Of a stretch of DNA of 64,000 nt, positions 1,174-59,917 are shown in pieces (the first letter of the stretch is position 1; each line of letters begins with the position of its first letter). This DNA is from a bacterium (GTDB taxonomy: Bacteria > Patescibacteriota > Minisyncoccia > Phycocordibacterales > SBAW01): positions 171,017 to 235,016 of the forward strand of contig JBAXFJ010000001.1 in assembly GCA_037139975.1 (NCBI GenBank), given 5' to 3'. Both the position numbers and the translations under genes were made by a program. A model generated the notes under the pieces. That model saw only the letters and a program-made list of their open reading frames with translations. It was not told the origin of the DNA and did no database searches.

Positions 1174-2319
1174 TTATGCTGCTACTTCCTCTGCTTCACT
1201 CTTTTCTTCTTTAACCTCCGTCGGTTTTTCAGGTTGATTCGACTGGATATCAATCCTCCAACCGGTCAGTTTCGCTGCGAGGCGCACATTTTGACCACCG
1301 CGGCCAATGGCGAGACTTTGCTGGTCGCTCGCAACGGTAACGCTTGCTTTGTGCTCCGTCTCGTCCAGCTCGATGCTTAAAATGCGCGCAGGAGAAAGGG
1401 CTTCTTCGATAAAGTGCTTTGGATCTTCATTCCACTCGATGATGTCGATTTTCTCGCCACCAAGCTCTGAGGTGACCGTCGAGACACGCACACCGCGCTG
1501 CCCCACGAGCGAGCCAACAGGGTCCACGTGCGGGTCGCTTGAGGCGACGGCAACTTTTGATCGAGATCCTGCCTCACGCGCGGTGGCCTTAAAAGTCACG
1601 ACGCCGTTCGCGACTTCAGGCACTTCCATCTCAAAGAGTTTGACCAAAAATTCAGGCTGGGCGCGTGAGAGGCGCAGGTAGATGCCTTTTGCGCTCTCTT
1701 CCACTTGAAAGAGCACGGCGCGCACGCGCTCGCCTTGGCGATAGCGCTCGCCCGGGATTTGCTCGTCATAGGGCAAAATGCCTGTTGCGCGGCCAAGGTC
1801 AATAAAGATGTTGCCACGCTCCATGCGCTGCACGGTTCCGCTCACAATTTCACCTTGGCGTTTGCCAAACTCGGCCACTACAGATACTTTTTCGGCTTCG
1901 CGTATCTTTTGGATAATAACTTGTTTTGCGGTTTGGGCCGCGATGCGGCCGTAGTCATCCTTTGCTTCAAGGGCAAAGACGAGTTCATCGCCCACCTTGG
2001 CGTCACGTTTGATAAACTTGGCATCGCTCAGCAAGATGTGCTGCTCGGGGTTGAAATGGGTGCGGTCTTCGCCTTCTTTTATATCACTCTCGTCAAAATA
2101 GACGGTGCTTTCGTCAGCAACTTCTTTTATTTGTTCAAATTCGGTCGTGCCAGCACTCAAATCAATTTGAGCACGGATAATCTGCCCGCGTTTTGCATAT
2201 TCTTTTTTATAGGCGGTGGCGAGTGCTGCTTCGATAGCTTCGATAACTTTGGCTTTTGGGATACCGCGTTCTTCTTCGAGCTCGGTCAACACCGAATTCA
2301 TAACTTTGAGGTCAAACAT
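1174..2319 (-). CDS. nusA: transcription termination/antitermination factor NusA
   Basis: 381 aa; NusA N-domain, S1 domain and two KH domains (GRGGQNVRLAAKLTGWRIDI). Confidence 0.9.
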   Translation of the reverse strand: MFDLKVMNSVLTELEEERGIPKAKVIEAIEAALATAYKKEYAKRGQIIRAQIDLSAGTTEFEQIKEVADESTVYFDESDIKEGEDRTHFNPEQHILLSDAKFIKRDAKVGDELVFALEAKDDYGRIAAQTAKQVIIQKIREAEKVSVVAEFGKRQGEIVSGTVQRMERGNIFIDLGRATGILPYDEQIPGERYRQGERVRAVLFQVEESAKGIYLRLSRAQPEFLVKLFEMEVPEVANGVVTFKATAREAGSRSKVAVASSDPHVDPVGSLVGQRGVRVSTVTSELGGEKIDIIEWNEDPKHFIEEALSPARILSIELDETEHKASVTVASDQQSLAIGRGGQNVRLAAKLTGWRIDIQSNQPEKPTEVKEEKSEAEEVAA

Positions 2320-2444: not shown

Positions 2445-5400
2445 ATGTTGTTGGATGTTGTATATAAAGCCGCTCTTCTTTTTTGTGTTCCTGGCCTGGT
2501 GCGCTCTAGGGCGCGTTATCCACACAAAAGTTTTTCTTACGCGTTTGCATACGCAAAGAGTGCTAGGATTTGGGTAATGCGTACACGCACTACATTTCTA
2601 CTTCTTGCTTTTTTCCTTGTGATTGGTTTTTCATCTTTATTTACAAATCAAGGAAGGGGGATAGGTGCCGCTTTGTATAGCGGTCTCATTGAAACCCACA
2701 TTGCGCAAGCTGCTGGCAGTGTCACAAACGATGCTGGCAATACGTGGACCAACTATTGTTATGGTCTCATTGAAGATGAGATGTGCACCGTTAGTCCGCT
2801 GGCTTGGGAAAACTGGGAAACATGCAACGCTGACGGCACCATCACTGCTAATGTTGGCTGGAATTATGTGGGGGTGCCACAAGGTAGTGGTGGTTGGTAT
2901 CTGCAGTTGAATTCTGGGGACTTGCCTGTCTCTGGCAATTTAGGTGTTGCAGACAATCACACTTTCGCAGGACTTTCGCCTAATCGATCATACAATATTT
3001 ATTTTGATGTTTTTCTTGGTCCGCGTTGGAACTCAGGCTGGTGGGCTACCGATAATTTTCCTGGTGGTGCAGCCTACAGAAACCATCTCAACACTGGCCC
3101 TTGTGTTTCCTCTCCCACAGGCTCCATCAGCAGCCTCACCAACCCCTGCCAAATAGCCAGCGGCCAAACCACCTGCACGCCGCTCTTTAACTGGAACACA
3201 GCAAACACCAACGGCACAGTCGTAACCAATATTGTCGGTAGTGCGCCATATGCCGACGAGACAGCCTATACTTGGTATATTCCTGCTAACGGTTCTGGCG
3301 GGCACGGTGCCGCGCTTCCTGCTGGTAATTACACTATTAAGTTATATGGACAAAATTCGGCTGGCGGCTGGGTGCTTCTTGATTCAAAGCCGACTACGGT
3401 TGTTTCAGCCCCAACAGGCACACTCACCACCCCAAGCTCCTGTTATATTCCGAGCGGTCAGACTACGTGCACACCGCTCTTTGATTGGCAAACCGCGCAA
3501 ACCAATGGCGTAGTTCAGCTTAATATCGTCAATGCAAACGGCGCTCAGCCGTATCCCACCGAATCGTTGTACGTCGCCAACCGAGGCACCGCAATCACTG
3601 GTACTCCTGGTACGGCGCTTCCTGTTGGTACCTATACCGTTAAGTTGTACGGCCAAAATTCAGCAGGCACCTGGGTGCTTCTTGACTCTAAGCAGGTCAC
3701 GATTGTTCCTTTCCCAACCGCAACTCTCTCCGTTTCTCCAACCTCGGTTGCATACAACGGTCAAGCAACACTCACTTGGAGTTCAACCAACGCCACCTCC
3801 TGCACCGCAGGGGGGCCGTGGTCTAACGCAAGCGCCCCGCTTGGGGGTACTGGATCGACGGGGGCGCTTATTGCAAATGCTACGTATACGCTCCAATGTA
3901 CGGGTCCTGGAGGTACCACACCGCTCCAGTCGGTGACGGTTTCGATCAATAACCGAACTCCTGCGGGGTATCTGGATTCTGCCAGCTGTTCGGCTTTGAG
4001 TGGTTGGGTAGTGGATCCAGACAGCGCCAACAGCATCGCGAGTGTGCGTATCTTCGACGGCCCTTCGAGCACAGGCACACTCATTGGCACGTACCCCACA
4101 AGCGTGTTCCGAGGTGACGTTACCGAACCGAACACAGGCATTGCTGGTCTTGTTGCTGGCAATCATGGATTCTCTGTGCCAACGCCGGCAAGCCTCCTCG
4201 GGGGCGCGACTCACAGCATCTATGCTTATGGGGTGGACATTCAAACGGGCGGATTGACGAATTTGGGCTCGAGTCCAAAAAGTATCACCTGCCCGACCCC
4301 AACCGCAACTCTCTCCGTTTCTCCAACCTCAATTGCATACAACGGCCAAGCAACACTCACTTGGAGCTCAACTAACGCCACCTCCTGCACCGCAGGGGGG
4401 CCGTGGTCTAACGCAAGCGCACCGCTTGGGGGTAGTGGATCGACGGGGGCGCTTATTGCAAACGCGACGTATACGCTCCAATGTACGGGCAATGGCCAAA
4501 CATCTGCACTGCAGTCAGTGACGGTTGGGGTGGGAGCCGCTCCGGTAAATGGTGTGTGTGCTGCAACACACTACAGCTGTAGTGCTGGTACGAGTGCTAC
4601 TACTGTGGAAGGAGCAAGCACCTACACGTGGAGTTGTGTTGGCCTTAACGCGGGGACCACCGCCTCGTGTTCCGAGGCGAAGCCAGCGCCAACCGCAACG
4701 CTCGCTGTTTCTCCAACCTCGGTTGCATACAACGGTCAAGCAACACTCACTTGGAGTTCAACCAACGCCACCTCCTGCACCGCAGGGGGGCCGTGGTCTA
4801 ACGCAAGCGCCCCGCTTGGGGGTACTGGATCGACGGGGGCGCTTATTGCAAACGCGACGTATACGCTCCAATGTACGGGAAATGGTCAAACGTCCGCGCT
4901 CCAGTCAGTGACGGTTACCACGAGTCCTCCCCTGTCTTGTACTTCACTGTGGGGCGGTGCAGCCATCGCCAATGGCGACTCCGTGACCGCATATCACACA
5001 GCTTCGACCATCTATCCTGCCACCTGCGCCCAAGAAACGCGTGCTTGCGGCAACGGAGTATTGAGTGGAAGTTACACAAACCAGACGTGCGCGGTCTTGC
5101 AGCCTGATCTCATCGCCTCCACCGTCATCCCAAACACTGCGGTGGCTGGTAGCGCTGTCACGCTCTCTGCAACCGTCACTAACCGAGGCACCGCAAGCAC
5201 TGGCGCAAGCTTCTCGAACTTCTTCCAAGTCGCCACTGCCACAAACGGTGGCGGCACAGTCACCGACCTCGCTCCCGCAGTGATGTCTGCACTTGCGGCA
5301 AATGCATCAGGCGCCACAGCGAAGCCCTACACCTTCACCACCGCAGGCACCTACTCGGTCCGCGCCTGTGCTGACAAGTCTTCTGCTACTGACCTTGGCG

Positions 5401-7784
5401 CCATCGCCGAGTCAGATGAAACCAACAACTGTGGGACATGGACTAATGTAGTGGTTACCGCTGCTCCTGCGTCTGACCTCACCACCTCAGCTGCCCAACC
5501 AACCGCAGCGGTAGTTGGCAACGCTGTCACGCTCTCTGCAACCGTCACTAACCGAGGCACCGCAAGCACTGGCGCAAGCTTCTCGAACTTCTTCCAAGTC
5601 GCCACTGCCACAAACGGTGGCGGCACAGTCACAGACCTTGCTCCTGCGGTGATGTCTGCACTTGCGGCAAATGCATCAGGCGCCACAGCCAAGTCTTACA
5701 CCTTTACTGCTGCAGGCACCTACTCGGTCCGCGCCTGTGCCGATAAGTCTTCTTCTGCGGACCCTGGCGCCATCGCCGAGTCAGACGAAACCAACAACTG
5801 TGGGACATGGACTGATGTAGTGATTGATTATCCTGGAGCAACCTCTGCCCTGCATGGGCAAGGGTGTGTGCTCCCTGTGGGGGGAGGCACATGCAACCTC
5901 ACTGCATGGTGGAGCATCACCGGTCTTACTGCAGGTGAGACGGTTGACGTGAGTGTCACGGGGCCTGGTCTTGCAATACGCACCTTTAAAAATATTCCTG
6001 CAGACTCAACCAAACTCACTCGCGCAACACGCAGAAGTCTTCTTGCTGCGGTGCTGGGTGGTTTTGGCGCTACTCAAGATTCGACAACACCTTTTATCCA
6101 GGCAGTTGGCACTGCAGGGACGTTCAATCTGACACTTACCCGGCACGCCAACCAATCTGCACTAGGTTCGTTTGCACTCTTTGCTTGTCCTCCAGGAACA
6201 ACTAATGTCAACGAAGTTTGCACAGGCGCTCCTGACTTGATAGCGGGTGCCACAGTGCCAACTGCTGCGGTTGCAGGCATCATCACCACGCTTTCGGGAG
6301 TGATCACCAACCAGGGCGGCGCAAGCACCGGCACTACGTTCACGAGCCTGTTTGAAATAAACTCCAACAACAATCCAACAAGTTTCCATAGTATTGAAGC
6401 AACCCAGACCTACGTCACCCCTGCACTTGCGGTGGGTGGTACAAACACCGCAACAACGCCTTACAGTTTCCCCGCGTCTGGTACCTACTATGTGCGCCTC
6501 TGTGCAGACACAAACGACAGCAATGTGGGTACCATCACCGAAGCAAACGCTTTGGGTACTGGTGAGACCAACAACTGCGGCCCTTGGACCCCTGTGATTG
6601 TGACCGCTCCTGACCTGATTGCGGGCGGCGCTTCTCCGGTGTCGGCGACCGCTGGCGCGTCCATATTCCTCAGTGCACCAATCTCCAACCAAGGCACCGC
6701 AGACGTCACTCAAAACTTCTCTAACTTCTTTCAGGTGGCGGTTGATGTGAACGATGCCACCACCATTACCGATCTTGCTCCTACCACCATGACTCCCTTG
6801 TCAAAAGGCGCTACACGACTTGCAGCACGACCATATTCATTTGGAGCAGGCACCTACTACGTCCGTGTGTGTGCCGACAAAACGTCACGCAACGATGGGG
6901 GAGTAATCACCGAGTCAAATGCTACCGACGCATCCTCGATTGATACAGGCGAGACCAACAACTGCGGCAGCTGGGCAAAGACGGTGGTGTGCGCGGCGGG
7001 CAAAGTCTATTTTGGCGGCTCGTGTCTCTTTACTCCACCAGGGTGTCCTCTTGATACAGTGAATGATGCTGGGCTGTGTTGCCCAGTGGGACAGGTCAAT
7101 GGTGGTGGTGTATGCGTTCCTTCATGCACAAACGACTATGTGCTTGTGAATAACCAGTGCGTACCCGCGGTATGTTCTGGCACTACCTCGTGTGTTTCGG
7201 GTCCAAACATCTGCGGTATGACGAACCCAGGCACCTATGACCCAGCCACGTGCACGTGCGTTGCCACACCGCCTGCAGATTCTTTGTGCCATATATGCAC
7301 ACCAAACGCCGCGTGTGCCGCAAGTGCTGCAAACAACTGTGGTTCAAGTAGCGGTACTTGCAATGCGGCAGGCAGCTTCTGCGCTCCACCCGCAGACAAC
7401 GTGTCGTGTTCTGTGGGGGCGGTCTGTAACCCAGGACAAGTGGGCACGCCGCCAAACTGCAGCTACCCTGGTTCTACTGGTTCAGTAAATGGTTCAACTT
7501 TCGCTCCAACAATCACACTAAACGCACCTGCGCGTGTTCGTGCGGGAGGCACTGCAACGCTCACGTGGTCTGCAACGGGCTCTACTCAATGTGTTCTGAC
7601 AGGTCCCCACCTGCCAAGTGCGACGGTTACAGTAACTGGTGATGCAAACAGCAATGTTGCAAGTCAACAAGTCGCCGCGACTATCCTGGGACAAAGTGTA
7701 TACACAGTCAGGTGCTCAGGCCTTGGAGGCTCTGTTTCAGTGAGCAGGACGGTAAACCTTATTCCGCAAGTCATCGAACAATAA
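2445..7784 (+). CDS. giant secreted surface protein with CARDB-like and Ig-like tandem repeats and a Cys-rich C-terminal region (adhesin-like)
   Basis: 1779 aa. A signal/TM segment (MRTRTTFLLLAFFLVIGFSSLF) suggests the real start may be the ATG at 2577. Contains 2 N-terminal ~95-aa repeats, 3 (+1 C-terminal) Ig-like 'ATLTWSSTNATSCTAGGPW...YTLQCTG' modules, 4 CARDB-type modules (NRGTASTG...ESDETNNCG) and a ~150-aa cysteine-rich block. Gly/Thr/Ser/Asn-rich composition. Confidence 0.85.
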   Translation: MLLDVVYKAALLFCVPGLVRSRARYPHKSFSYAFAYAKSARIWVMRTRTTFLLLAFFLVIGFSSLFTNQGRGIGAALYSGLIETHIAQAAGSVTNDAGNTWTNYCYGLIEDEMCTVSPLAWENWETCNADGTITANVGWNYVGVPQGSGGWYLQLNSGDLPVSGNLGVADNHTFAGLSPNRSYNIYFDVFLGPRWNSGWWATDNFPGGAAYRNHLNTGPCVSSPTGSISSLTNPCQIASGQTTCTPLFNWNTANTNGTVVTNIVGSAPYADETAYTWYIPANGSGGHGAALPAGNYTIKLYGQNSAGGWVLLDSKPTTVVSAPTGTLTTPSSCYIPSGQTTCTPLFDWQTAQTNGVVQLNIVNANGAQPYPTESLYVANRGTAITGTPGTALPVGTYTVKLYGQNSAGTWVLLDSKQVTIVPFPTATLSVSPTSVAYNGQATLTWSSTNATSCTAGGPWSNASAPLGGTGSTGALIANATYTLQCTGPGGTTPLQSVTVSINNRTPAGYLDSASCSALSGWVVDPDSANSIASVRIFDGPSSTGTLIGTYPTSVFRGDVTEPNTGIAGLVAGNHGFSVPTPASLLGGATHSIYAYGVDIQTGGLTNLGSSPKSITCPTPTATLSVSPTSIAYNGQATLTWSSTNATSCTAGGPWSNASAPLGGSGSTGALIANATYTLQCTGNGQTSALQSVTVGVGAAPVNGVCAATHYSCSAGTSATTVEGASTYTWSCVGLNAGTTASCSEAKPAPTATLAVSPTSVAYNGQATLTWSSTNATSCTAGGPWSNASAPLGGTGSTGALIANATYTLQCTGNGQTSALQSVTVTTSPPLSCTSLWGGAAIANGDSVTAYHTASTIYPATCAQETRACGNGVLSGSYTNQTCAVLQPDLIASTVIPNTAVAGSAVTLSATVTNRGTASTGASFSNFFQVATATNGGGTVTDLAPAVMSALAANASGATAKPYTFTTAGTYSVRACADKSSATDLGAIAESDETNNCGTWTNVVVTAAPASDLTTSAAQPTAAVVGNAVTLSATVTNRGTASTGASFSNFFQVATATNGGGTVTDLAPAVMSALAANASGATAKSYTFTAAGTYSVRACADKSSSADPGAIAESDETNNCGTWTDVVIDYPGATSALHGQGCVLPVGGGTCNLTAWWSITGLTAGETVDVSVTGPGLAIRTFKNIPADSTKLTRATRRSLLAAVLGGFGATQDSTTPFIQAVGTAGTFNLTLTRHANQSALGSFALFACPPGTTNVNEVCTGAPDLIAGATVPTAAVAGIITTLSGVITNQGGASTGTTFTSLFEINSNNNPTSFHSIEATQTYVTPALAVGGTNTATTPYSFPASGTYYVRLCADTNDSNVGTITEANALGTGETNNCGPWTPVIVTAPDLIAGGASPVSATAGASIFLSAPISNQGTADVTQNFSNFFQVAVDVNDATTITDLAPTTMTPLSKGATRLAARPYSFGAGTYYVRVCADKTSRNDGGVITESNATDASSIDTGETNNCGSWAKTVVCAAGKVYFGGSCLFTPPGCPLDTVNDAGLCCPVGQVNGGGVCVPSCTNDYVLVNNQCVPAVCSGTTSCVSGPNICGMTNPGTYDPATCTCVATPPADSLCHICTPNAACAASAANNCGSSSGTCNAAGSFCAPPADNVSCSVGAVCNPGQVGTPPNCSYPGSTGSVNGSTFAPTITLNAPARVRAGGTATLTWSATGSTQCVLTGPHLPSATVTVTGDANSNVASQQVAATILGQSVYTVRCSGLGGSVSVSRTVNLIPQVIEQ
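3713..4915 (+). repeat. three near-identical ~225-bp intragenic direct repeats (about 3713-3940, 4295-4525, 4685-4915)
   Basis: Nucleotide copies beginning ccaaccgcaactctctccgtttctccaacctc... are almost identical at DNA level with irregular spacing (582 and 390 bp). They encode the Ig-like PTATLSVSPTS...LQCTG module. Confidence 0.85.
5095..5820 (+). repeat. two tandem near-identical ~360-bp copies of the CARDB-module coding sequence (about 5095-5460 and 5461-5820), followed by two diverged copies (about 6230-6990)
   Basis: The string ctgtcacgctctctgcaaccgtcactaaccgaggcaccgcaagcactggcgcaagcttctcgaacttcttccaagtcgccactgccacaaacggtggcggcacagtcac occurs in both copies. Confidence 0.85.
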
Positions 7785-7851
7785 TAAATTAGGGTGTTTT
7801 GTGTGCGAATGTGCAAAGAAAAAAGAAGCACGCGTAGTATACTGAAGTGGT

Positions 7852-9564
7852 ATGCAGGCGCATGAGGAAAGTCTTGCCACATTTTTACGTGACGCGGGGA
7901 TGGTGTCGCGCTCGCAGTTGGAGTCGCTTGTGCGGCGAGTGACGGTCTCGGGCGAAGCGTTTCACCACGTGCTTTCCACTTCAGGCGCGCTCAGTGAAGA
8001 CGAGGTGCGTCGCGCACTTTCAAAAGTGCTTGGAGTGCCTTTTGTCTCACTTACTACAGAATCGATCTCGCCGGAGGCGTTGGTGCATATACCCGAACCT
8101 TTTGCACGGTCTCATGGTGTGGTTGCATACCAGATGCACCGCGAGCGCGGCGTTCCTGGAGGGATCCTCCTTGAGGTTGCGTTGCTTGATATGGATGCGC
8201 ATGCGTCACTGCAGCAGCTCGACTTGCCCTACACGGTGCGCGTGCGTCTCACCGACAGGGCGTCGCTCACTCGTGCATTGCTGCTCTATCAAAAGGTGCT
8301 CAAAGATTCTTTTTCGTCTCAGGCGCAGGAGCCGCTTGCAGTGGTGGATGCATTGCTCGAACGAGGTCTTTACAGCAAGGCCGAAGCGATTCATCTGTCG
8401 CCAACCGAGAATGGTTTTTTGGCGCACTACCGTATTGGTGGTGAATTGTATGAAGCACTAACGCTCTCGTTTGAGGTTGGGCAAGTTGTGTTGCAAAGAG
8501 TTGCTACGCTTGCGCATGTGATTGTTGGCACACAAACCCCTCAAGAAGGCAGTTTCAAAATCGCTGCAGGGGATGAAGAAGTGTCTGTTCGTGCCTCGCT
8601 GCTCCCGACTGTGGCGGGCGATGCGCTCACCCTGCATCTGTTACGTGCGGGAGTGGGTGCTGCGGGGCACACGCTCGAGTCTCTTGGTTTTCATGGCGCA
8701 GGACTTGCGCGCCTGAGGCATGCGCTTCATGCCCGTTCCGGGTTGGTGCTGGTTTCTGGGGGCGACCATGCTGGCGTCACCACACTTCTCTATACACTGC
8801 TTGATACGCTTGGTGGGTATACGCACACTACCATCACCGTTGAGGGTGGTGTGTCAGTACGCCTTCCCTATGCGCTGCAAACTGAAGCAGGGGGTGATGG
8901 CGGTGTATCAATGGCGACAGGGGTCCGTGCAGCGCTCTTGCAAGACCCTGACGTGCTCATGATTTCTCAGATTGCTGATCGAGAAACCGCCTTGCTTGCG
9001 GTCTCTGCTGCGCAGAGGGGTGTTTTAGTAGTTGCGGGGGTTGCTGCCACATCAGCTTCGGTTGGTATTGCCAACCTTCTGTCCTTGGGCGTTTCTTCGA
9101 CCATGTTGGCGAGCTCTCTTGCAGTGTCTGTGGGGACGAACTTGGTGCGGGCGCTGTGTCCGGCGTGCAAGAGCGGCGCCGAAGCATATAAGTTGTCGCG
9201 TGCCGAAATGGCTTCGCTGGAAGGCGAGGTAGATTTCAGTCGCATATTGTCTGCGCTGAAGGAGACGCGCAGTGTAACAGAAGACGCGCCGTGGAAGACA
9301 GTATCTTTTATACATCCCAACACGTGTGATGCGTGCCAAGATGGGTACCAAGGGTACTGCGGTGTGCAAGAAGTGTTTGTGTCTTCGCGTGCGATACAAC
9401 AGAGTGTTGTTGCATATGCTGCATATCCAGACGATGCGGTGTTCGCATATGCGATAGAAACAGCCGCTCGAGCCGATGGGGCGATCACCCTGATTGAAGA
9501 CGGTGTATACAAGGCAGCCCAAGGCCGTACGAGCCTAGAGGAGGTGCTTTCGCTCGAAGCGTAG
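7852..9564 (+). CDS. PilB/GspE-family (type II/IV secretion 'ATPase') paralog with degenerate catalytic motifs; predicted pseudo-ATPase
   Basis: 570 aa. GspE_N-like N-domain, a conserved core (RASLLPTVAGDALTLHLL; ITVEGGVSVRLPY) and a C-terminal tetracysteine CPAC...CDAC motif. Walker A reads GGDHAGVTT (Lys->Val), Walker B/Asp box reads DPDVLMISQIAD (Glu->Gln), and the His box reads RGVLVVAGVAATSA (His lost). Confidence 0.75.
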   Translation: MQAHEESLATFLRDAGMVSRSQLESLVRRVTVSGEAFHHVLSTSGALSEDEVRRALSKVLGVPFVSLTTESISPEALVHIPEPFARSHGVVAYQMHRERGVPGGILLEVALLDMDAHASLQQLDLPYTVRVRLTDRASLTRALLLYQKVLKDSFSSQAQEPLAVVDALLERGLYSKAEAIHLSPTENGFLAHYRIGGELYEALTLSFEVGQVVLQRVATLAHVIVGTQTPQEGSFKIAAGDEEVSVRASLLPTVAGDALTLHLLRAGVGAAGHTLESLGFHGAGLARLRHALHARSGLVLVSGGDHAGVTTLLYTLLDTLGGYTHTTITVEGGVSVRLPYALQTEAGGDGGVSMATGVRAALLQDPDVLMISQIADRETALLAVSAAQRGVLVVAGVAATSASVGIANLLSLGVSSTMLASSLAVSVGTNLVRALCPACKSGAEAYKLSRAEMASLEGEVDFSRILSALKETRSVTEDAPWKTVSFIHPNTCDACQDGYQGYCGVQEVFVSSRAIQQSVVAYAAYPDDAVFAYAIETAARADGAITLIEDGVYKAAQGRTSLEEVLSLEA

Positions 9565-9570
9565 TATAGT

Positions 9571-10350
9571 TTGAACATGAAACGAGCTAAGCCAATTGTG
9601 ATTGCAAACTGGAAAGGCTATGTTGAGACGCCCGAGGAGGCAAAACGCTTTGTGCAGGTCATAAAGCGCAGTACAAAAACCCTCTCTGCGTGTCAGGTGA
9701 TGCTCGCGCCCTCTTTCACGCTCTTGCCAACACTTGTGCCTTTGTTAAAAAACTCTGCTGTTCAGGTCGGGTCGCAGGCAGTCTCCGCACACCCAGGTGG
9801 GGCGCATACGGGCGAGGTTACCGGCGCAATGCTTCGGGCGGTGGGCGCTGTTTTTAGTATTGTGGGTCACTCAGAGCGCCGAGCACTTGGCGGCGCAGGT
9901 GAAAGCGAAGAGGGTATTCAAAACCAAATTGCTCGTGCATGCGAGGCAGGGCTGGGCGTCGTTCTCTGTGTGGGTGAGCATGAACGTGAAGCGTCGGGTG
10001 CGCACTTTGGCATCATTGCGGGACAGCTCGCGTCGGCACTCGCCGCAGTGCCGCTCAAAAACATGGGCAAGCTTATGGTTGCCTACGAGCCCGTGTGGGC
10101 AATAGGAAAAACCGCAGCAGATGCTATGCAGCCCGGCGATGTGCAGGAAGTATTTATTTTTATTCGTAAAATTCTAGTCGAGAAGATCGGCAGAGCGGCG
10201 GCATTGAAAGTTCCCATTCTGTATGGTGGCTCTGTTGAAGAAGAAAATGTACAGGGGCTGTACCATGAAGGTGGAGTAAGTGGTTTTCTGGTTGGGCACG
10301 CGAGCAGCAAGAGCGACTCTTTTATAAAACTTATCAAAGCGCTGCAGTAA
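9571..10350 (+). CDS. tpiA: triosephosphate isomerase
   Basis: 259 aa; NWK, AYEPVWAIGKTA and YGGSV motifs. Confidence 0.9.
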   Translation: MNMKRAKPIVIANWKGYVETPEEAKRFVQVIKRSTKTLSACQVMLAPSFTLLPTLVPLLKNSAVQVGSQAVSAHPGGAHTGEVTGAMLRAVGAVFSIVGHSERRALGGAGESEEGIQNQIARACEAGLGVVLCVGEHEREASGAHFGIIAGQLASALAAVPLKNMGKLMVAYEPVWAIGKTAADAMQPGDVQEVFIFIRKILVEKIGRAAALKVPILYGGSVEEENVQGLYHEGGVSGFLVGHASSKSDSFIKLIKALQ

Positions 10351-10356
10351 CGCTCT

Positions 10357-11355
10357 ATGCAATTACAGTCAATTCATGATGCGGATATAGCAGAAAAACG
10401 TGTCCTGCTGCGCGTTGACTTCAACGTACCGTTTACAGACAGTGGTGCTATAGCTGAAGACTCGCGCATCAAAGCAGTGGTGCCGACCATTGTGCTGCTC
10501 AAGCAAAAAGGGGCTGCACACATCACCCTCATGACTCACGTGGGGCGACCCGAGGGAAAGGTGGACGAGGCGTTGCGTACGGCGCCACTCTTCAAATATC
10601 TCAGTGAGCTGACTGACACCACAGGGGTCGAGATGCTTGAAAACCTGCGTTTTGATGCGCGCGAAGAAGTAAACGACGTGGGGTTTGCACAAGAACTCGC
10701 GTCGCATGGTGATGTGTTTGTGAACGATGCGTTTGCGGTGTGTCACCGGGCGGCGGCTTCTACGGTTGGCGTTGCGGCATTCCTGCCCGCGTACGCGGGC
10801 TTGTTGGTTGAAAAAGAAGTTGCACATCTCTCTGAAGCGCTCATGCCGCCTGTGGGTTCTGTAGCGATTATCGGCGGGGCAAAGCTCGAGACCAAATTAC
10901 CTCTCATCGCGCAGTTTTCTTCTTTGTATACAAAAGTGTGTGTCGGCGGTGCGCTTGCAAACGAGTATGCGCCAACAGCAAACGACACCAACGTATCGCT
11001 CCCGAGCGATGGGGTGCCCCAACACCAAGGAATGCTTGATATTGGCCCACAGACTGCTGCTGCATGGGCAGAAGAGATACGGCGTGCGCCGTTTGTGCTG
11101 TGGAATGGTCCAGTGGGTATGTATGAAAAGCCGGAGTATCGGCACGGCACCGACACGCTTGCTCGGGCAATTGCCGAGGGTTCGTGCCGCGCAGTCTTGG
11201 GTGGTGGGGACACCGACGCGGCGCTCGCGCAGTTCACCTTTGACTCGGAGCGCGTCTTTATCTCAACCGGCGGGGGAGCTATGCTCGAGTTTTTGGCCAA
11301 TGGCGGCACATTGCCCGCGCTTGAAGTGCTTAAAAATCCTAAGGTTAAACCTTAG
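10357..11355 (+). CDS. pgk: phosphoglycerate kinase (short form)
   Basis: 332 aa; RVDFNVP N-terminal motif, HVGRPEGK, and a GGGDT-like C-terminal region. Confidence 0.8.
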   Translation: MQLQSIHDADIAEKRVLLRVDFNVPFTDSGAIAEDSRIKAVVPTIVLLKQKGAAHITLMTHVGRPEGKVDEALRTAPLFKYLSELTDTTGVEMLENLRFDAREEVNDVGFAQELASHGDVFVNDAFAVCHRAAASTVGVAAFLPAYAGLLVEKEVAHLSEALMPPVGSVAIIGGAKLETKLPLIAQFSSLYTKVCVGGALANEYAPTANDTNVSLPSDGVPQHQGMLDIGPQTAAAWAEEIRRAPFVLWNGPVGMYEKPEYRHGTDTLARAIAEGSCRAVLGGGDTDAALAQFTFDSERVFISTGGGAMLEFLANGGTLPALEVLKNPKVKP

Positions 11356-11713: not shown

Positions 11714-11729
11714 AGTATACTAAATTCTC

Positions 11730-22898: not shown

Positions 22899-23417
22899 TT
22901 ACCACATGCTACACGCAGTAGCCCCGCTACACACCATCCACGACCAGGTGGGGCGTGCAGGATCATAAAATTCATCACTTGTTGGGGTCGAGGCGACTTG
23001 TGAGTTTGCAGGAAAGTTATCTATGAGTTTATAACTTTGTCCATCTGAACAATAAAGATATGCTCTGTTTATCGCAGTGGTTCCGTCAAGTTGTGGATCT
23101 TGTGGTAGTGCAGAGGTGTTAGTGTATGCCGGGGCAAGTCCGGGTATATAGTTTGTCTTGTTTCCATAGTCAGTCGTGTTGCCCCACCAACTATTGCAAC
23201 TGCTGCCGCCCGTGTTGCCAGTAGAAGGGTAGGCGTTATTGTCGTTGTAATACACCGAAAGGGAAAGGGCGAGGTTTTTGAGGTCGCTTTTGCGTTTGGT
23301 GTCGTTTGCGCGGTACTTGGCGCTCGAGAGGCTGGTCATCACAATGCCTGCCAAAATGGCTATGATTCCAATTACCACCATCAATTCAACAAGTGTAAAT
23401 CCTCTTTTGTGTGACAT
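22899..23417 (-). CDS. type IV pilin/pseudopilin-like protein (class III signal peptide)
   Basis: The track ORF runs to 23522, but the likely start is MSHKRG|FTLVELMVVIGIIAILAGIV (prepilin leader plus N-terminal hydrophobic helix), ATG at 23417. Asn/Tyr/Gly-rich globular part. Confidence 0.7.
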   Translation of the reverse strand: MSHKRGFTLVELMVVIGIIAILAGIVMTSLSSAKYRANDTKRKSDLKNLALSLSVYYNDNNAYPSTGNTGGSSCNSWWGNTTDYGNKTNYIPGLAPAYTNTSALPQDPQLDGTTAINRAYLYCSDGQSYKLIDNFPANSQVASTPTSDEFYDPARPTWSWMVCSGATACSMW

Positions 23418-42606: not shown

Positions 42607-42830
42607 TCAAGGCGGTCAGGGCGACTCTCGACACTGTCCGTGCTTCTAGTTGTTGTGGTTGGGCTTGTGCTGTGTGTGTATGACCCTTTTACGCCTTCTC
42701 GTCCCGGGCGGACCACTGCGGGCGCCTGTGCATAGTTTGCACGCAAAATTGTCGTGTATACTGTGAAGACAGGGTGTGCGGGAGGCGACATGAGCGCATC
42801 ATTACTAAATCGTATAAGAATATATTTCAT

Positions 42831-44018
42831 ATGGCATTTTTTGCAGGAGTAGGAAGCAGTAAGCAAATTAACGATTCATACGCCGCGGGTCATGACGCCG
42901 CGTCATTTGCGCGTACAAATTCGGGACACGACGAGGTCAGTTTGGCGGTTGTAGTGGCATCATCTGCCTATGACCAAGAAGCAATGTTGAAAGGGGTGCG
43001 CGAAGCGTTGGGTGGGGCATCAGTTGTTGGATGCACCAACGCGGGCGCCATCACTGGTAATGGTGTTGAAGAACAGGCGGTGACCGTGCTCGTGCTCTAT
43101 TCAGACTCAGGCTCTTTTGTTCCTGCAAAGGTTGTCGGTATCGGCAAAGACATGCGCGCCGCAGGAAAGAAATTTGGTGAAGAAATTCAAAAAAGTGACG
43201 AAAAAGCGCGCATGGCATTTGTGTTTTCAGACGCGCTCGCAGGTAATGGTACCGAATTGGTGCGAGGAATCCTTGACGTTTTCGGAAGCGATTTCAAGAT
43301 TGCGGGCGGAGCTGCAGGGGACGACATGAACTTCAAAAAGACGTACCAGTATTTTAATGACGAGGTGCTGACCGACGCAGTGGTTGGTTTTGGTCTTTCA
43401 GGCGATATTGAGGTTGTGGTGGGTGCTTCTCACGGGTGGCAACCAATTGGTGGGTCGCGTGTAGTGACCAAAGCAGAAGGAACCAAGCTCATCGAGCTCG
43501 ACGGCAAGCCCGCGTTCCAGATCTACCAAGACTACTTTGGTGAAAAAGCGAGCGATTTCAAAAAAGCACTTTCACTTGAAGCAGTGACGTACCCCATGGG
43601 CATGAAGGTGAAAGGTGTTGACGAGTTGATGGTACGGGTGCCGCTTGCGGTTGCGGACGATGGTTCGATTGTTTGTGGTGCTGAAGTGGTTGAAGGGAGT
43701 GAGGTATACATCATGATTGGTACCATCGCGAGTGCGATGGAAGCCGCAAAAGAAACCACACAAGGGTTGGTTGACCGTATGTCCGACACCGATCCACGCG
43801 TGGTGTTTGTCTCGGACTGTGTCGCACGCAAAATCTTGTTTGGTGAACACGGTCAAGAAGAAATCACGCTGTTGAAGTCAATCGGTGGACCCAAGTCGGT
43901 CATCTTTGGCTTCTATTCCTATGGGCAAATTGCTTCACTGAGAGCTCCTGCCCCCAACATCAACACCTGTGACCCTGGCTTCTACGAACAGTCGATCTCG
44001 GTGACAGTGTTCGGGTAG
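42831..44018 (+). CDS. FIST-domain sensor protein (FIST_N + FIST_C)
   Basis: The track ORF begins at 42774; the likely start is MAFFAGVGSS (ATG at 42831). Gly-rich GGAAGDD and YSYGQI motifs typical of FIST proteins. Confidence 0.65.
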   Translation: MAFFAGVGSSKQINDSYAAGHDAASFARTNSGHDEVSLAVVVASSAYDQEAMLKGVREALGGASVVGCTNAGAITGNGVEEQAVTVLVLYSDSGSFVPAKVVGIGKDMRAAGKKFGEEIQKSDEKARMAFVFSDALAGNGTELVRGILDVFGSDFKIAGGAAGDDMNFKKTYQYFNDEVLTDAVVGFGLSGDIEVVVGASHGWQPIGGSRVVTKAEGTKLIELDGKPAFQIYQDYFGEKASDFKKALSLEAVTYPMGMKVKGVDELMVRVPLAVADDGSIVCGAEVVEGSEVYIMIGTIASAMEAAKETTQGLVDRMSDTDPRVVFVSDCVARKILFGEHGQEEITLLKSIGGPKSVIFGFYSYGQIASLRAPAPNINTCDPGFYEQSISVTVFG

Positions 44019-44039
44019 TTCACAACACTGCTTTGTTCT

Positions 44040-44945
44040 ATGTTGCATAACCTATTGCTCTACACACTCCCCGCAGTTCTTGTGTTGCTTGTGGCCAGCA
44101 CTTTTTTCCTGTCTTCTTTGTTGCGTAAAAATAAAGCTCTTGCTCTTGAAGTAGTAAAAAAGAAGAACGAGTTGGACCGCACTTCAAAGGTGTTGATTCA
44201 GAAAAACGTTGAGCTGATAGAACAGACCTTGCGACAACAAAAGCTTCTCGAATCAAAAGACGACTTTGTCGCTATTGTCTCGCACCAACTTCGCACCCCC
44301 ATCACCGAGATAAAATGGAATGCATCTGCGATTCTGGAAGACCCTGCGTGGGGGCTGACGCCCGAACATCGACGCATGGTCGAGCAGCAACTGGCAAGCG
44401 CTGTGCGCATGGTGAGCATTGTAAGCACGATCTTACAGTTGGTTGCCAGCGAACAGCACGCAGCACGCTCGTCGGTCTCGCCCTATGCGCCGGACGAGGT
44501 GGTGCGCGATGCGTCAGAGCGGGTTGCGCGGGATTTTCATGAAAAACACATTGCGTGCGTACTTGATTTGAACTATGGCGCGTCAATTTACTCCATTGAC
44601 CCAGAGTCATTTGCCATGCTGGTAGGCAACCTGCTTGAAAATGCATTCCACTACACGCCGCGTGGTGGCACCATTACGGTGCGCACCAAGCACGGTGAGA
44701 TGGGCGAGTTTGTGGTGCTTATTGAAGATACCGGTATGGGTATTTCTGAAGAGAAACAAAAAACCATGTTCCAGAAATTTATTCGAGAAAAAGACGCGAT
44801 CAAGGTCAACGAAGGAGGGTCGGGGCTTGGGTTGTATATCGTCAAGAATGTGCTCGAGCAGCGCGGAGGGAGCATTACCTTTACGAGCACAAAGGGTGTA
44901 GGAAGTGTTTTTCGCCTCACGCTTCCACAGCAAAAGGCAAAATAA
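44040..44945 (+). CDS. sensor histidine kinase (TM, coiled coil, HisKA, HATPase_c)
   Basis: 301 aa; H-box IVSHQLRTPIT, N-box LLENAFHYT and G-box GGSGLGLYIV. Confidence 0.85.
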   Translation: MLHNLLLYTLPAVLVLLVASTFFLSSLLRKNKALALEVVKKKNELDRTSKVLIQKNVELIEQTLRQQKLLESKDDFVAIVSHQLRTPITEIKWNASAILEDPAWGLTPEHRRMVEQQLASAVRMVSIVSTILQLVASEQHAARSSVSPYAPDEVVRDASERVARDFHEKHIACVLDLNYGASIYSIDPESFAMLVGNLLENAFHYTPRGGTITVRTKHGEMGEFVVLIEDTGMGISEEKQKTMFQKFIREKDAIKVNEGGSGLGLYIVKNVLEQRGGSITFTSTKGVGSVFRLTLPQQKAK

Positions 44946-46442: not shown

Positions 46443-47378
46443 TTACGCGTGCACAGTGATAGGAATAACGCGTCGCCTGTGGCGTAACACGCCAAGGCTA
46501 GCAAGCCCAACCGCGAGCAGAGTGAGCGAGGTCGGTTCTGGTGCACTTGCTCGTGTTTGTTCTGGCCAGAAGGTGATTCCACCTACGCCATTCAACCCAT
46601 CGGCGCTGTTCGCAAAGAGTGAACCGACGCCGGATTGATTAAATACTTCGATGGTGCTGCTCCCTTGATTCGCTGCGTACAGATTGCTGGCCGTATCGAA
46701 AGCAAGCCCAAACGGTCCGTCTACGCTGGTGCTTGCAAACACCGATTCAACTCCGGCGGGGGTAACTTTCAAGATAAGGTTGCGGCTGTGGTCTGCGACA
46801 TAGAGGTTGCCAGCTGCATCGAAGGCAAGACCTATTGGTTGTGAGTTTGGTATTGTGACAAACACCGATGCAGCACCGCCAGGCGTATACCTTTCAATTT
46901 TGTTTCCACCAACACTTGCGGCATAAAGGTTGCCACTAGCATCGAACGCAAGGTATGTGGGTGAACTCACCCCCACATTCGCGAAGACCGAACCAACCCC
47001 GCCCGGTGTGAACTTCTCAATGGTGTTGCCAATGTAGTTCGCCACGAACAGGTTGCCAGCAGTATCGAAAGCTAAACCATACGGCCCAGACAACCCAGTA
47101 TTTGCGAAGACCGAACCAACCCCGCTCGGGGTGAACTTGTCGATGGTGTTGTTGCCGAAGTTTGTTACATACAGGTTCCCAGCGCTGTCGAAAGCGACGT
47201 CGTGGGGGTTGTTCAACCCTGAATTGATGAAGGTTGAGCATACCCCTGCGGGCACACTGCATCTTTCAATTGTGTTGTTGCCCGAGTTGGCTACAAAAAC
47301 GTTGACCAGAGTCGCTCGCGCGTCTGCCAGTCCAAGTAGATAGACAATCGCCAGAATGGCGATGATGATCTTCTGCAT
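46443..47378 (-). CDS. secreted NHL-repeat beta-propeller protein with PEP-CTERM-like C-terminal sorting tail
   Basis: The track ORF extends to 47450; the likely start is MQKIIIAILAIVYLLGLADA (signal peptide). Six NHL-type repeats (GxxxPxGLAFDxxGNLYVAN). C-terminus APEPTSLTLLAVGLASLGVLRHRRR. Confidence 0.7.
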   Translation of the reverse strand: MQKIIIAILAIVYLLGLADARATLVNVFVANSGNNTIERCSVPAGVCSTFINSGLNNPHDVAFDSAGNLYVTNFGNNTIDKFTPSGVGSVFANTGLSGPYGLAFDTAGNLFVANYIGNTIEKFTPGGVGSVFANVGVSSPTYLAFDASGNLYAASVGGNKIERYTPGGAASVFVTIPNSQPIGLAFDAAGNLYVADHSRNLILKVTPAGVESVFASTSVDGPFGLAFDTASNLYAANQGSSTIEVFNQSGVGSLFANSADGLNGVGGITFWPEQTRASAPEPTSLTLLAVGLASLGVLRHRRRVIPITVHA

Positions 47379-47560
47379 TTTCCACCTCTTACTCTTAATG
47401 ATGTAACCGCCCAACGCCGGATGACGCTGGGCTGACTGTTCAAACCTCATTATATATCAAAACAGCACTTCTGTCAAACTAGGAAAAAATAAAAACAGCT
47501 CTCCAATAAAGGGGATAAACAAGGGCGGCACAAATCATCGCGCCGCCTTCACCATTTGTG

Positions 47561-59200: not shown

Positions 59201-59917
59201 GTGAGCATGAGTATTGCATTACAGCGGGGGAGCGGGGAGTTGGAAAGATTGAACACAGAGTTGAACGACGAGCAGGTGTTGGCGGACTACAGACGCTCGT
59301 TTGATAATTACCACGCCAGTTTGCTTCCGCGCGTGTTGGGCAACGCCCTTGTGTGGTGCGGCAACGCCGTCTATGGTGAGCGACCGTCGTATTTGAAGTT
59401 TCGCGCAGTCGAGGTCATCGCGCGCGTTCCGTACCAGTCGTGGAACTCGGCGGCATACACGCTGTTGACGCTCTTCTATCGTGACGAAAAAAAAGCGCTC
59501 AAACTTTCGGAGCTTTCACAGTATGCGCGCGTGGCAGAAGACAACGAGACGATGCATGTGGTGGTCATCTCCAGTTTGGCCGCGCATGAAGCAAAAGCAG
59601 GAACCATCCGGCACACCATTGTCCCCATGCTCTTTGCGTTTTTCTACTTCTGGGCGTCCTACCTGCTCTTTTTGATCAAGCCGAAATATTCATTCGAGCT
59701 GAACTACCTGTTTGAAAGCCATGCGTTTGAACAGTATGATCGGTTTTTAAAGTTGCAAGGGCCGGAATTGAAAAAGAAGCCTATTTCAAGCGAGTTTTTG
59801 AACTGGTATGGTCGGCACCCACGTTCGCAGTATGAATTCTTTCTGTCGGTGCGCAATGACGAAATAATCCACCGCAACACGTCTATTGAGGAGATAGAAA
59901 AGACCAAAAAAGTGTGA
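59201..59917 (+). CDS. alternative oxidase / PTOX-family di-iron carboxylate quinol oxidase-like protein
   Basis: 238 aa; four-helix Fe ligand motifs in order: RAVEVIARVP (LET.A.VP), EDNETMHV (NERMH), LFESHAFEQY (LEEEA.H.Y) and RNDEIIHRN (RADEA.HR). Confidence 0.7.
   Translation: MSMSIALQRGSGELERLNTELNDEQVLADYRRSFDNYHASLLPRVLGNALVWCGNAVYGERPSYLKFRAVEVIARVPYQSWNSAAYTLLTLFYRDEKKALKLSELSQYARVAEDNETMHVVVISSLAAHEAKAGTIRHTIVPMLFAFFYFWASYLLFLIKPKYSFELNYLFESHAFEQYDRFLKLQGPELKKKPISSEFLNWYGRHPRSQYEFFLSVRNDEIIHRNTSIEEIEKTKKV

Follow-up and report, generated by a model that had tools for sequence, protein, structure and literature searches.

We analysed a stretch of 64,000 nucleotides from a bacterium of the Patescibacteriota (contig JBAXFJ010000001.1, positions 171,017 to 235,016 of the forward strand; hereafter the window), in which an open reading frame (ORF) at 7852..9564 on the plus strand, with ATG as its start codon, encodes a 570-aa protein of the PilB/GspE family of assembly ATPases. 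This protein, in which every catalytic motif is substituted, is referred to here as pseudo-PilB. Residue roles were taken from the structural paper on Geobacter metallireducens PilB (PMC5424180), and the motifs were registered residue by residue on HMMER alignments to that protein (5TSG/5TSH). The gene and its parts are as follows, with the evidence in brackets.

7852..9564, plus strand: pseudo-PilB, 570 aa, PilB/GspE family, catalytic motifs all substituted (ORF, Pfam, relatives in the Protein Data Bank, AlphaFold2, Foldseek)
7852..8301, plus strand: N1 domain (residues 1-150; GSPII/MshEN fold), lacking the cyclic di-GMP (c-di-GMP)-binding motif (MshEN 22.5 bits; PilB/PilF N-terminal domains 9g1w and 6ejf_G; motif test)
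8635..8637, plus strand: H262, which stands where G. metallireducens PilB has R286, the arginine finger for the gamma-phosphate (alignment, translation)
8758..8784, plus strand: Walker A remnant GGDHAGVTT (G303-GDHAGVTT-311) in place of GPTGSGK[ST]; the lysine has become V309, and the equivalent of the P-loop threonine T327 is D305 (alignments, translation)
8842..8856, plus strand: Asp-box remnant EGGVS (E331-GGVS-335) in place of EDPVE; the equivalent of the Mg-coordinating E357 is S335 (alignment to G. metallireducens PilB)
8944..8979, plus strand: Walker B remnant DPDVLMISQIAD (D365-PDVLMISQIAD-376) in place of DPDIIMIGEIRD; the equivalent of the catalytic glutamate E395 is Q373 (alignments)
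9016..9057, plus strand: His-box remnant RGVLVVAGVAATSA (R389-GVLVVAGVAATSA-402) in place of TGHLVLSTLHTN; T411 corresponds to R389, H413 to V391 and H420 to A398 (alignments)
9157..9336, plus strand: tetracysteine zinc motif, CPAC (9157-9168, C436/C439) and CDAC (9325-9336, C492/C495) (translation; motif role from PMC5424180)

The Pfam profile T2SSE (PF00437) matches residues 164-566 with E=6e-58 and 196.7 bits (cut-off 24.9), which places pseudo-PilB in the T2SSE superfamily (PilT/VirB11-like secretion ATPase fold) over its N2 and C-terminal domain (CTD), and the MshEN profile matches residues 60-145 with E=1.1e-4 and 22.5 bits, slightly below its cut-off of 23.1. The domain plan is that of the complete N1-N2-CTD fold. 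The closest solved structures are Thermus thermophilus PilF, Myxococcus xanthus and Geobacter PilB, and Vibrio GspE (E 6e-50 to 1e-37), identity being 25-28% to the solved PilB/GspE members and 33-37% to the intact PilB of Paceibacteria. An AlphaFold2 model, for which the input alignment consisted of 68 family members, reached a mean predicted local distance difference test score (pLDDT) of 93.5 and a predicted template modelling score (pTM) of 0.85, with no segment below 50; its top Foldseek matches were GspE (4PHT, N1 included), PilF and Geobacter PilB, each with probability 1.0. Like the PilB/GspE clade, pseudo-PilB has a tetracysteine zinc motif, and zinc binding is predicted from the sequence. 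The original prediction, which had read a PilB/GspE architecture from the letters, is thus borne out, by a strong T2SSE profile and a borderline MshEN one. In the NCBIfam equivalog test, pseudo-PilB stayed far under the cut-offs, with 204.1 against 675.65 for TIGR02538 (PilB) and 207 against 630.25 for TIGR02533 (GspE); an intact Paceibacteria PilB (PilB1), at 526, likewise lies under the equivalog cut-off.

The alignments to 5TSG/5TSH confirmed, residue by residue, the earlier claim that every catalytic motif is substituted, and they added two losses that it had not listed, the Asp-box E357 and the arginine finger R286. Within the arginine-finger pair the equivalent of R271 is kept (R247) and that of R286 is lost (H262), and the inter-subunit arginine R257 of the G. 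metallireducens protein has become S234. Also kept are E331, D365, D367, R433 (R455 in G. metallireducens) and both CxxC pairs. The possibility that intact motifs might lie elsewhere in the protein was checked by a whole-protein scan, which found no intact GxxxxGK[ST], GEIRD or His box at any other site. Set against a functional PilB/GspE ATPase, pseudo-PilB lacks the Walker A motif, the Asp-box glutamate, the catalytic glutamate, the His-box histidines, the complete arginine-finger pair and a cognate PilC. Since all catalytic motifs are substituted, pseudo-PilB is very unlikely to hydrolyse ATP, as had been proposed, and its motor activity would have been lost. An assembly error as the cause of the substitutions was ruled out, because the sequence agrees without a difference over 13,905 bases with that of an independent assembly (L001, Logan) and because the substitutions are common to the closest relatives of the window protein.

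The original prediction had also allowed for the binding of nucleotide or c-di-GMP without hydrolysis, and here the evidence points the other way. Nucleotide binding is doubtful, as the P-loop lysine is V309 and the loop has gained an aspartate (D305). For c-di-GMP, we tested the two tandem 24-residue motifs RLGxx(L/V/I)(L/V/I)xxG(L/V/I)(L/V/I)xxxxLxxxLxxQ and the relaxed published form. Both MshEN motifs of pseudo-PilB fail at positions 1, 3, 7 and 24, the Arg, Gly and Gln positions among them, and the relaxed form is matched by none of the 151 Paceibacteria relatives (0/77 decayed, 0/74 intact).

The borders of the locus are conserved genes:

1174..2319, minus strand: nusA, conserved left border of the pilB slot (Pfam; synteny)
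9571..11355, plus strand: tpiA (9571-10350) and pgk (10357-11355), directly downstream of pseudo-pilB (Pfam; synteny)

With one genome scanned per species, 80 loci were retrieved, every one of them in metagenome-assembled genomes (MAGs) of Paceibacteria/Parcubacteria; 9 of the loci carry a decayed PilB and 71 an intact one that aligns over its full length, at the identity of 33-37% given above, with the window protein. Decayed and intact loci have a common gene order, ppa(-) nusA(-) / pilB(+) ... tpiA pgk hit(-) recJ rnhA comEC sod(-), and more distant members of the decayed clade keep the same nusA-pilB-tpiA order. Between pilB and tpiA the intact loci have, in this order, pilC (Pfam T2SSF 5.5e-63), an ORF of 206 aa, a pilin-like gene that carries an N-methylation motif, and an ORF of 478 aa; pilC lies downstream of the intact pilB in 69/69 loci with enough sequence, and in none of the decayed loci. 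The distance from the PilB start to the TIM (tpiA) start is accordingly about 1.75 kb in decayed loci versus 5.3-9.8 kb in intact ones, and in most decayed loci tpiA starts 6-20 bases past pilB. Where the spacer between pseudo-pilB and tpiA is longer (L010, L012, L085), comparison with 576 ORFs of intact loci at E<=0.01 gave no match to pilC, pilin or other operon genes, and the small ORFs in these spacers had no Pfam match. Profile searches of the 64-kb window found no pilC, pilT, pilM or pilD (T2SSF included), which agrees with the earlier statement that pseudo-pilB has no pilC/pilT/pilM neighbours, and no pilM, pilT or pilD was found around the nusA loci. Within 10 kb, the ancestral operon is accompanied by neither pilM/N/O nor pilD nor pilT; this PilB1-PilC1 operon probably used components shared with the main pilus cluster. 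A competence pseudopilus was considered as the identity of the ancestral operon and found no support, there being no ComGA-specific NCBIfam signal.

Sigma-70 promoter and terminator scans gave a background level only. The motif GTAGTATA[CG]T is found at 7834-7843 (+), 9561-9570 (+) and 11714-11723 (-), 1-9 bases before the starts of pseudo-pilB, tpiA and hit, the third copy with one mismatch; a count of three was reached in 18/100 shuffles and is not significant alone. The motif might serve as a -10-like element for transcripts with little or no leader. Elsewhere in related Paceibacteria (L090 1-11000 and L089 480-3340), many pilin genes are interleaved singly with gap, rpiB, rpe, two transketolase halves and pfkB, an arrangement of pilin and central-metabolism genes that mirrors the position of pilB-pilC-pilin upstream of tpiA-pgk.

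Relatives of pseudo-PilB were sought among 5.8 billion proteins and, in a further exhaustive search, among 1.84 billion cluster representatives. The first search yielded about 70 relatives at 35-55% identity, followed by a sharp fall to ordinary PilB at about 28%; the second added more than 100 His-less representatives. Overall there are 167 distinct His-less PilB sequences. Nearly all of the roughly 70 close relatives have RGVLVLAG.EA.SA at the His box, and R389 of pseudo-PilB is the signature residue of the whole decayed clade; the catalytic glutamate is mostly lost among them, and the Walker A lysine is kept in only about two thirds. Eight of the 167 His-less sequences, the window protein among them, lack all four of the P-loop lysine, the Asp-box glutamate, the catalytic glutamate and the R286 equivalent. 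In neighbour-joining trees (77 tips; 119 tips in the larger tree) the His-less sequences form one clade on a long stem, the loss being common to at least 119 sequence clusters in the core decayed clade, within which many branches have, each separately, exchanged the Walker A lysine for V, R or T. The 14/14 examined genomes with the decayed gene make up one organismal clade in the trees of NusA and RecJ. The same slot, the deletion of the partner genes and the single organismal clade identify the window gene as an in-place, vertically inherited descendant of the operon pilB: it is the positional ortholog of pilB from a small pilB-pilC-pilin operon of which pilC and the pilins have been deleted. 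The label of a solitary paralog, under which the gene had first been described, does not fit a gene that holds the slot of the intact operon between nusA and tpiA-pgk and belongs to a large vertically inherited clade.

Also among the sequences nearest to pseudo-PilB (E 1e-92 to 1e-62) are proteins of about 1000 aa that consist of two complete PilB units head to tail (P0136, P0144, P0149, P0150, P0165, P0185, P0194, P0204, P0215, P0222, P0226). Most of them keep Walker A, GEIRD and His box in both halves, and pilus ATPases fused in this way would give a covalent dimer inside the hexamer.

Other His-less or half-decayed PilBs lie outside the core clade and have intact PilBs as their nearest relatives; three were checked in context. 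In L091, whose tpiA is nearest to those of Campbellbacteria-type genomes, the decayed PilB stands upstream of tpiA with giant Flg_new proteins in place of pilC. L092 has a NusA 66% identical to that of the core lineage and no pilC, and L093 holds a copy of 481 aa, truncated at the C-terminus, that overlaps with the start of tpiA and has its nearest intact relative at distance 0.39. These are, on a judgement drawn for L091 and L092 from housekeeping genes and gene context, three independent decay events outside the core clade, none with an adjacent pilC. A conservative nestedness test for independent origins confirmed P0219 alone, and a parsimony count of origins on the midpoint-rooted neighbour-joining tree (2 changes) was discarded as an artefact, since long branches gather at the base. 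In L091 (59-10783), the decayed PilB is placed between Flg_new proteins of 1391 and 1169 aa, together with a Glug-domain protein, at the usual pilC/pilin site; vacated pil slots seem to be colonised by giant surface-protein genes.

The decayed proteins have a further trait in common. Arg or Lys occupies the position equivalent to T411/H413 in 133/137 core-clade sequences and in 32/41 independent cases, as compared with 0/84 intact PilBs; it does so in 9/9 of the groups outside the core clade that were defined by neighbour joining. We infer that such a basic side chain may fill or neutralise the acidic, nucleotide-free pocket; its presence in the former His box is what would be expected of a stabilised pseudoenzyme over random decay.

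As to selection, at a NusA identity of 0.70-0.85 the decayed proteins are 43% identical to one another versus 80% for intact PilBs, which means that the decayed PilB evolves about 4x faster than the intact one at equal organismal divergence. This acceleration is similar in all four domains, none being spared in a domain-by-domain comparison of conservation; the impression from consensus strings that N1 is specially conserved was therefore dropped, all four domains being relaxed to a similar degree. The ratio of nonsynonymous to synonymous substitution rates (dN/dS) is about 0.12-0.25 for decayed pairs (for the L002-L011 pair, dN is 0.18 and dS 1.47; the remaining pairs lie at about 0.13-0.25) and about 0.065 for pairs of intact PilB, values that are rough, with dS near saturation. 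The ORFs of the complete members among the 167 His-less sequences are uninterrupted. In such streamlined genomes, the low dN/dS, the open ORFs and the confident fold argue for, and do not prove, retention of pseudo-PilB for a function at the protein level under relaxed constraint. Loss of the catalytic residues with conservation of fold and ORF, under purifying selection and across a whole clade, is the pattern by which a pseudoenzyme is recognised, and it is the pattern found here.

Filament subunits are still encoded in the window, as it contains an intact pilin gene:

22899..23414, minus strand: type IV pilin gene (MSHKRG|FTLVELMVV), between fusA and tuf (Pfam N_methyl 4.7e-9; full-length homologs at 40-72% identity)

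One homolog of this pilin sits in a complete cluster (L088) with the order pilM-...-pilB(615 aa)-pilT-pilC-pilins-pilD-minor pilins. When the PilB of L088 was used as a query, 120 proteins at 74-100% identity were retrieved, with intact motifs in 120/120. An intact second PilB occurs alongside the decayed gene in at least 3 genomes of the lineage: P0387 is in the same MAG as the decayed locus L010 (Parcubacteria Gr01-1014_56), P0435 (MBC7836823.1) is in one MAG with the decayed P0053 (MBC7836389.1), their NCBI accessions being neighbours, and the JGI contig that carries P0472 has, at 199,548 bases, the length of the contig with the decayed P0065, a link that rests on equal size.

Upstream of pseudo-pilB, the slot is filled by a giant gene:

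2445..7784, plus strand: 1779-aa repeat protein, secreted or anchored in the membrane, in which there are four CARDB domains; its gene is a lineage-specific one in the variable nusA-pilB slot (ORF, Pfam)

This gene is on the same strand as pseudo-pilB and ends 67 bases upstream of it. Shorter CARDB homologs (735-930 aa, matching up to the C-terminus) are directly upstream only in L004, L005 and L007. The 10 other genomes of the lineage are without the giant gene; in these, nusA adjoins pseudo-pilB or only small unrelated genes intervene, the gap from nusA to pseudo-pilB being 124-153 bases in L009, L012 and L082. Large, mostly unrelated genes are found upstream of intact pilB too (L066, L067, L069, L083). 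The nusA-pilB gap is thus a variable slot that often gathers big surface-protein genes. Of the two-gene surface module proposed earlier, the pairing itself stands for the window, L004, L005 and L007, and the remaining ten genomes of the lineage lack it. On an Adlerbacteria-type contig (L087 5820-10516), a pilin homolog comes right after a 1391-aa Peptidase_S74 (tail-spike-type intramolecular chaperone) protein, one more case in which a giant surface protein and a pilin are paired.

Taken together, we consider that pseudo-PilB is probably a selected pseudo-ATPase, an in-place descendant of pilB that is no longer a motor, is kept by purifying selection and is likely to have a docking or regulatory role. 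Most Paceibacteria have kept the pilB-pilC-pilin operon between nusA and tpiA-pgk, and one lineage has deleted pilC and the pilins; in this lineage the His box was replaced (TGH...H by RGV...E/A), after which the other catalytic residues eroded repeatedly and independently, the window copy representing the extreme end of this erosion. What remains would be a non-catalytic PilB shell, the remnant of a second motor-platform pair, kept for partner binding, in which the basic residue at the former gamma-phosphate/His-box site would lend stability to an active site that holds no nucleotide. The shell might dock on shared components of the pilus machine as a placeholder, brake or signalling adaptor, although this binding and its output are inferred. 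A scaffold or regulator rather than a motor, as the original prediction had it, remains the most reasonable reading of its role. Several points weigh against a selected pseudo-ATPase. The fourfold acceleration of the whole protein would look the same under slow decay, and the truncated copy in L093 shows that outright decay does occur; the dN/dS values carry the roughness stated above; the trees are neighbour-joining only, with long branches that distort them, so that it is uncertain how many independent origins there were; only in relatives was an intact PilB seen to coexist with the decayed one, the genome of the window being covered over 64 kb, and in one of these relatives it hangs on contig size; and neither experiment nor gene context names a partner or an output for pseudo-PilB.

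The main rival is a functionless relic, in which pilB decays slowly after the loss of pilC and the pilins and persists only because its deletion is pending or because its transcription and translation feed the tightly spaced tpiA-pgk downstream. This would account for the loss of the partner genes in every decayed case, the about equal acceleration across four domains, the patchwork loss of catalytic residues, the L093 copy that runs into the tpiA start and the tpiA gap of merely 6-20 bases. It is harder to reconcile with a dN/dS far from ~1, with 167 distinct His-less sequences of which the complete ones have neither stops nor frameshifts in a lineage where dS is saturated, with a family alignment that gives a confident full-length fold prediction, and with the convergent Arg/Lys in the former His box of independent lineages; moreover, a role in operon expression would not conserve the amino-acid sequence. 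We regard slow functionless decay as unlikely, while keeping it in view. A ligand sensor, which would bind ATP or c-di-GMP without hydrolysis and act as a nucleotide-dependent switch, has precedents in the nucleotide-state signalling of M. xanthus PilB (PMC5544727) and in c-di-GMP binding by MshEN-type N-terminal domains (PMC5013675), and GxxxxGK[ST] is kept in about two thirds of the clade members and the Asp-box glutamate in 65%. The window protein, however, has valine for the P-loop lysine and an aspartate in the loop and has lost the Mg-binding glutamate and the gamma-phosphate arginine, the lysine was lost at least 10 times independently within the clade, which indicates that nucleotide binding is not under consistent selection, and the c-di-GMP motif is missing from all decayed and intact relatives examined, all of which makes a sensor improbable.

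A surface module, in which pseudo-PilB would serve the upstream giant CARDB protein, for instance in its export or display, draws on the common strand, the short gap of 67 bases, the homologous CARDB proteins directly upstream in three relatives and the independently decayed L091 PilB flanked by two giant Flg_new proteins. Yet ten other genomes of the lineage have no CARDB gene, big and mostly unrelated genes also precede intact pilB, and no export would be possible for a motor without ATPase activity and platform protein; we give this explanation little credence. That pseudo-PilB might still be an active motor with non-canonical catalytic residues is suggested by its fold and by the retention of E331, D365/D367, R247, R433 and the zinc site, but the nucleotide-, Mg- and water-contacting residues are all replaced (K to V, E357 to S, E395 to Q, H413 to V, H420 to A, R286 to H) and the platform protein PilC is not adjacent, so that this is to be considered highly improbable. 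A bolder extension of the selected pseudo-ATPase would see dead PilBs as a recurrent, selected invention of Paceibacteria: once a second pilB-pilC system has lost its platform the shell would be repurposed, the basic residue mimicking or filling the gamma-phosphate site, and would cap the remaining pilus machine (PilM/PilC2/PilB2/PilT) statically or slow it as a competitive brake. We put this forward as speculation that is rather unlikely to hold in full; if true, such a cap or brake could, for instance, keep adhesive pili in the extended state, so that the cell stays firmly attached to its host.

With the known PilB/GspE assembly ATPases (5TSG/5TSH, 5IT5/6EJF, 4PHT/4KSS), pseudo-PilB shares the N1 GSPII-fold, N2 and the RecA-like CTD with its tetracysteine zinc module, and with the intact PilB of its relatives an identical chromosomal slot; it differs from the former in that its catalytic residues and one arginine finger are replaced, that no PilC is adjacent and that its 204-207 bits contrast with cut-offs of 676/630. 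M. xanthus PilB, a signalling protein for exopolysaccharide production (PMC5544727), offers a precedent for a PilB output separable from pilus assembly, but it is a fully active motor whose signalling depends on the nucleotide state, whereas the nucleotide site of pseudo-PilB is destroyed. The MshE/PilF MshEN (GSPII) c-di-GMP receptors (PMC5013675) belong to the N-terminal fold family of pseudo-PilB (borderline in Pfam); in pseudo-PilB, however, the Arg, Gly and Gln of both motifs are missing, and no relative in Paceibacteria fits even the relaxed motif (0/151). In Acinetobacter baylyi TfpB and CpiA (PMC8213720), and in PilU, a second PilB/PilT-family protein or an inhibitor modulates one pilus machine, and the intact ancestor PilB1-PilC1, with no pilMNO/pilD nearby, resembles such a second motor-platform pair; those accessory paralogs are, in contrast, catalytically active. 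Pseudoenzymes in general show the same pattern of a kept fold, a lost active site, purifying selection and a charged side chain in the active site, a resemblance by pattern only, the role of pseudo-PilB being predicted. The searchable literature yielded no account of a PilB/GspE clade that is conserved and yet catalytically dead, be it in the candidate phyla radiation (CPR) or elsewhere, nor of a dead PilB-family paralog as an accessory motor or inhibitor.

A few other features of the window deserve mention. Between 60000 and 64000, G+C falls from ~0.52 to 0.42-0.46 toward the window end, and this drop coincides with a gene for a 560-aa large serine recombinase (61103-62785, minus strand; Resolvase, Recombinase, Zn_ribbon_recom), probably the edge of an integrated element. 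At 46443-47450 (minus strand) lies a gene for an NHL/beta-propeller repeat protein whose C-terminus bears a PEP-CTERM sorting motif (PF07589, E=4e-5), unexpected in a CPR bacterium; PEP-CTERM is normally paired with the exosortase systems of Gram-negative bacteria. A 238-aa protein (59201-59917, plus strand) matches the alternative oxidase family (AOX, E=1.3e-9), and a respiratory chain is expected to be lacking in such an organism. At 42774-44945 (plus strand), a FIST-domain protein is directly followed by a HisKA/HATPase_c histidine kinase, forming a small sensory pair.

Type IV pili are regarded as central to host attachment and DNA uptake in CPR/Patescibacteria, and in genome surveys any T2SSE match is counted as 'PilB present'. 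With a sizeable lineage of these ultra-small bacteria (at least 119 clusters; 167 His-less sequences) that carries a non-motor PilB, genomes would have been over-scored for that pilus system. Paceibacteria apparently possess two PilB systems, one of which has been repeatedly dismantled. To our knowledge, ATPase-independent functions of PilB have so far been approached only via point mutants in model organisms; a shell kept by selection after the loss of both catalysis and partners, and marked by a convergent substitution, would provide a natural experiment for such functions.

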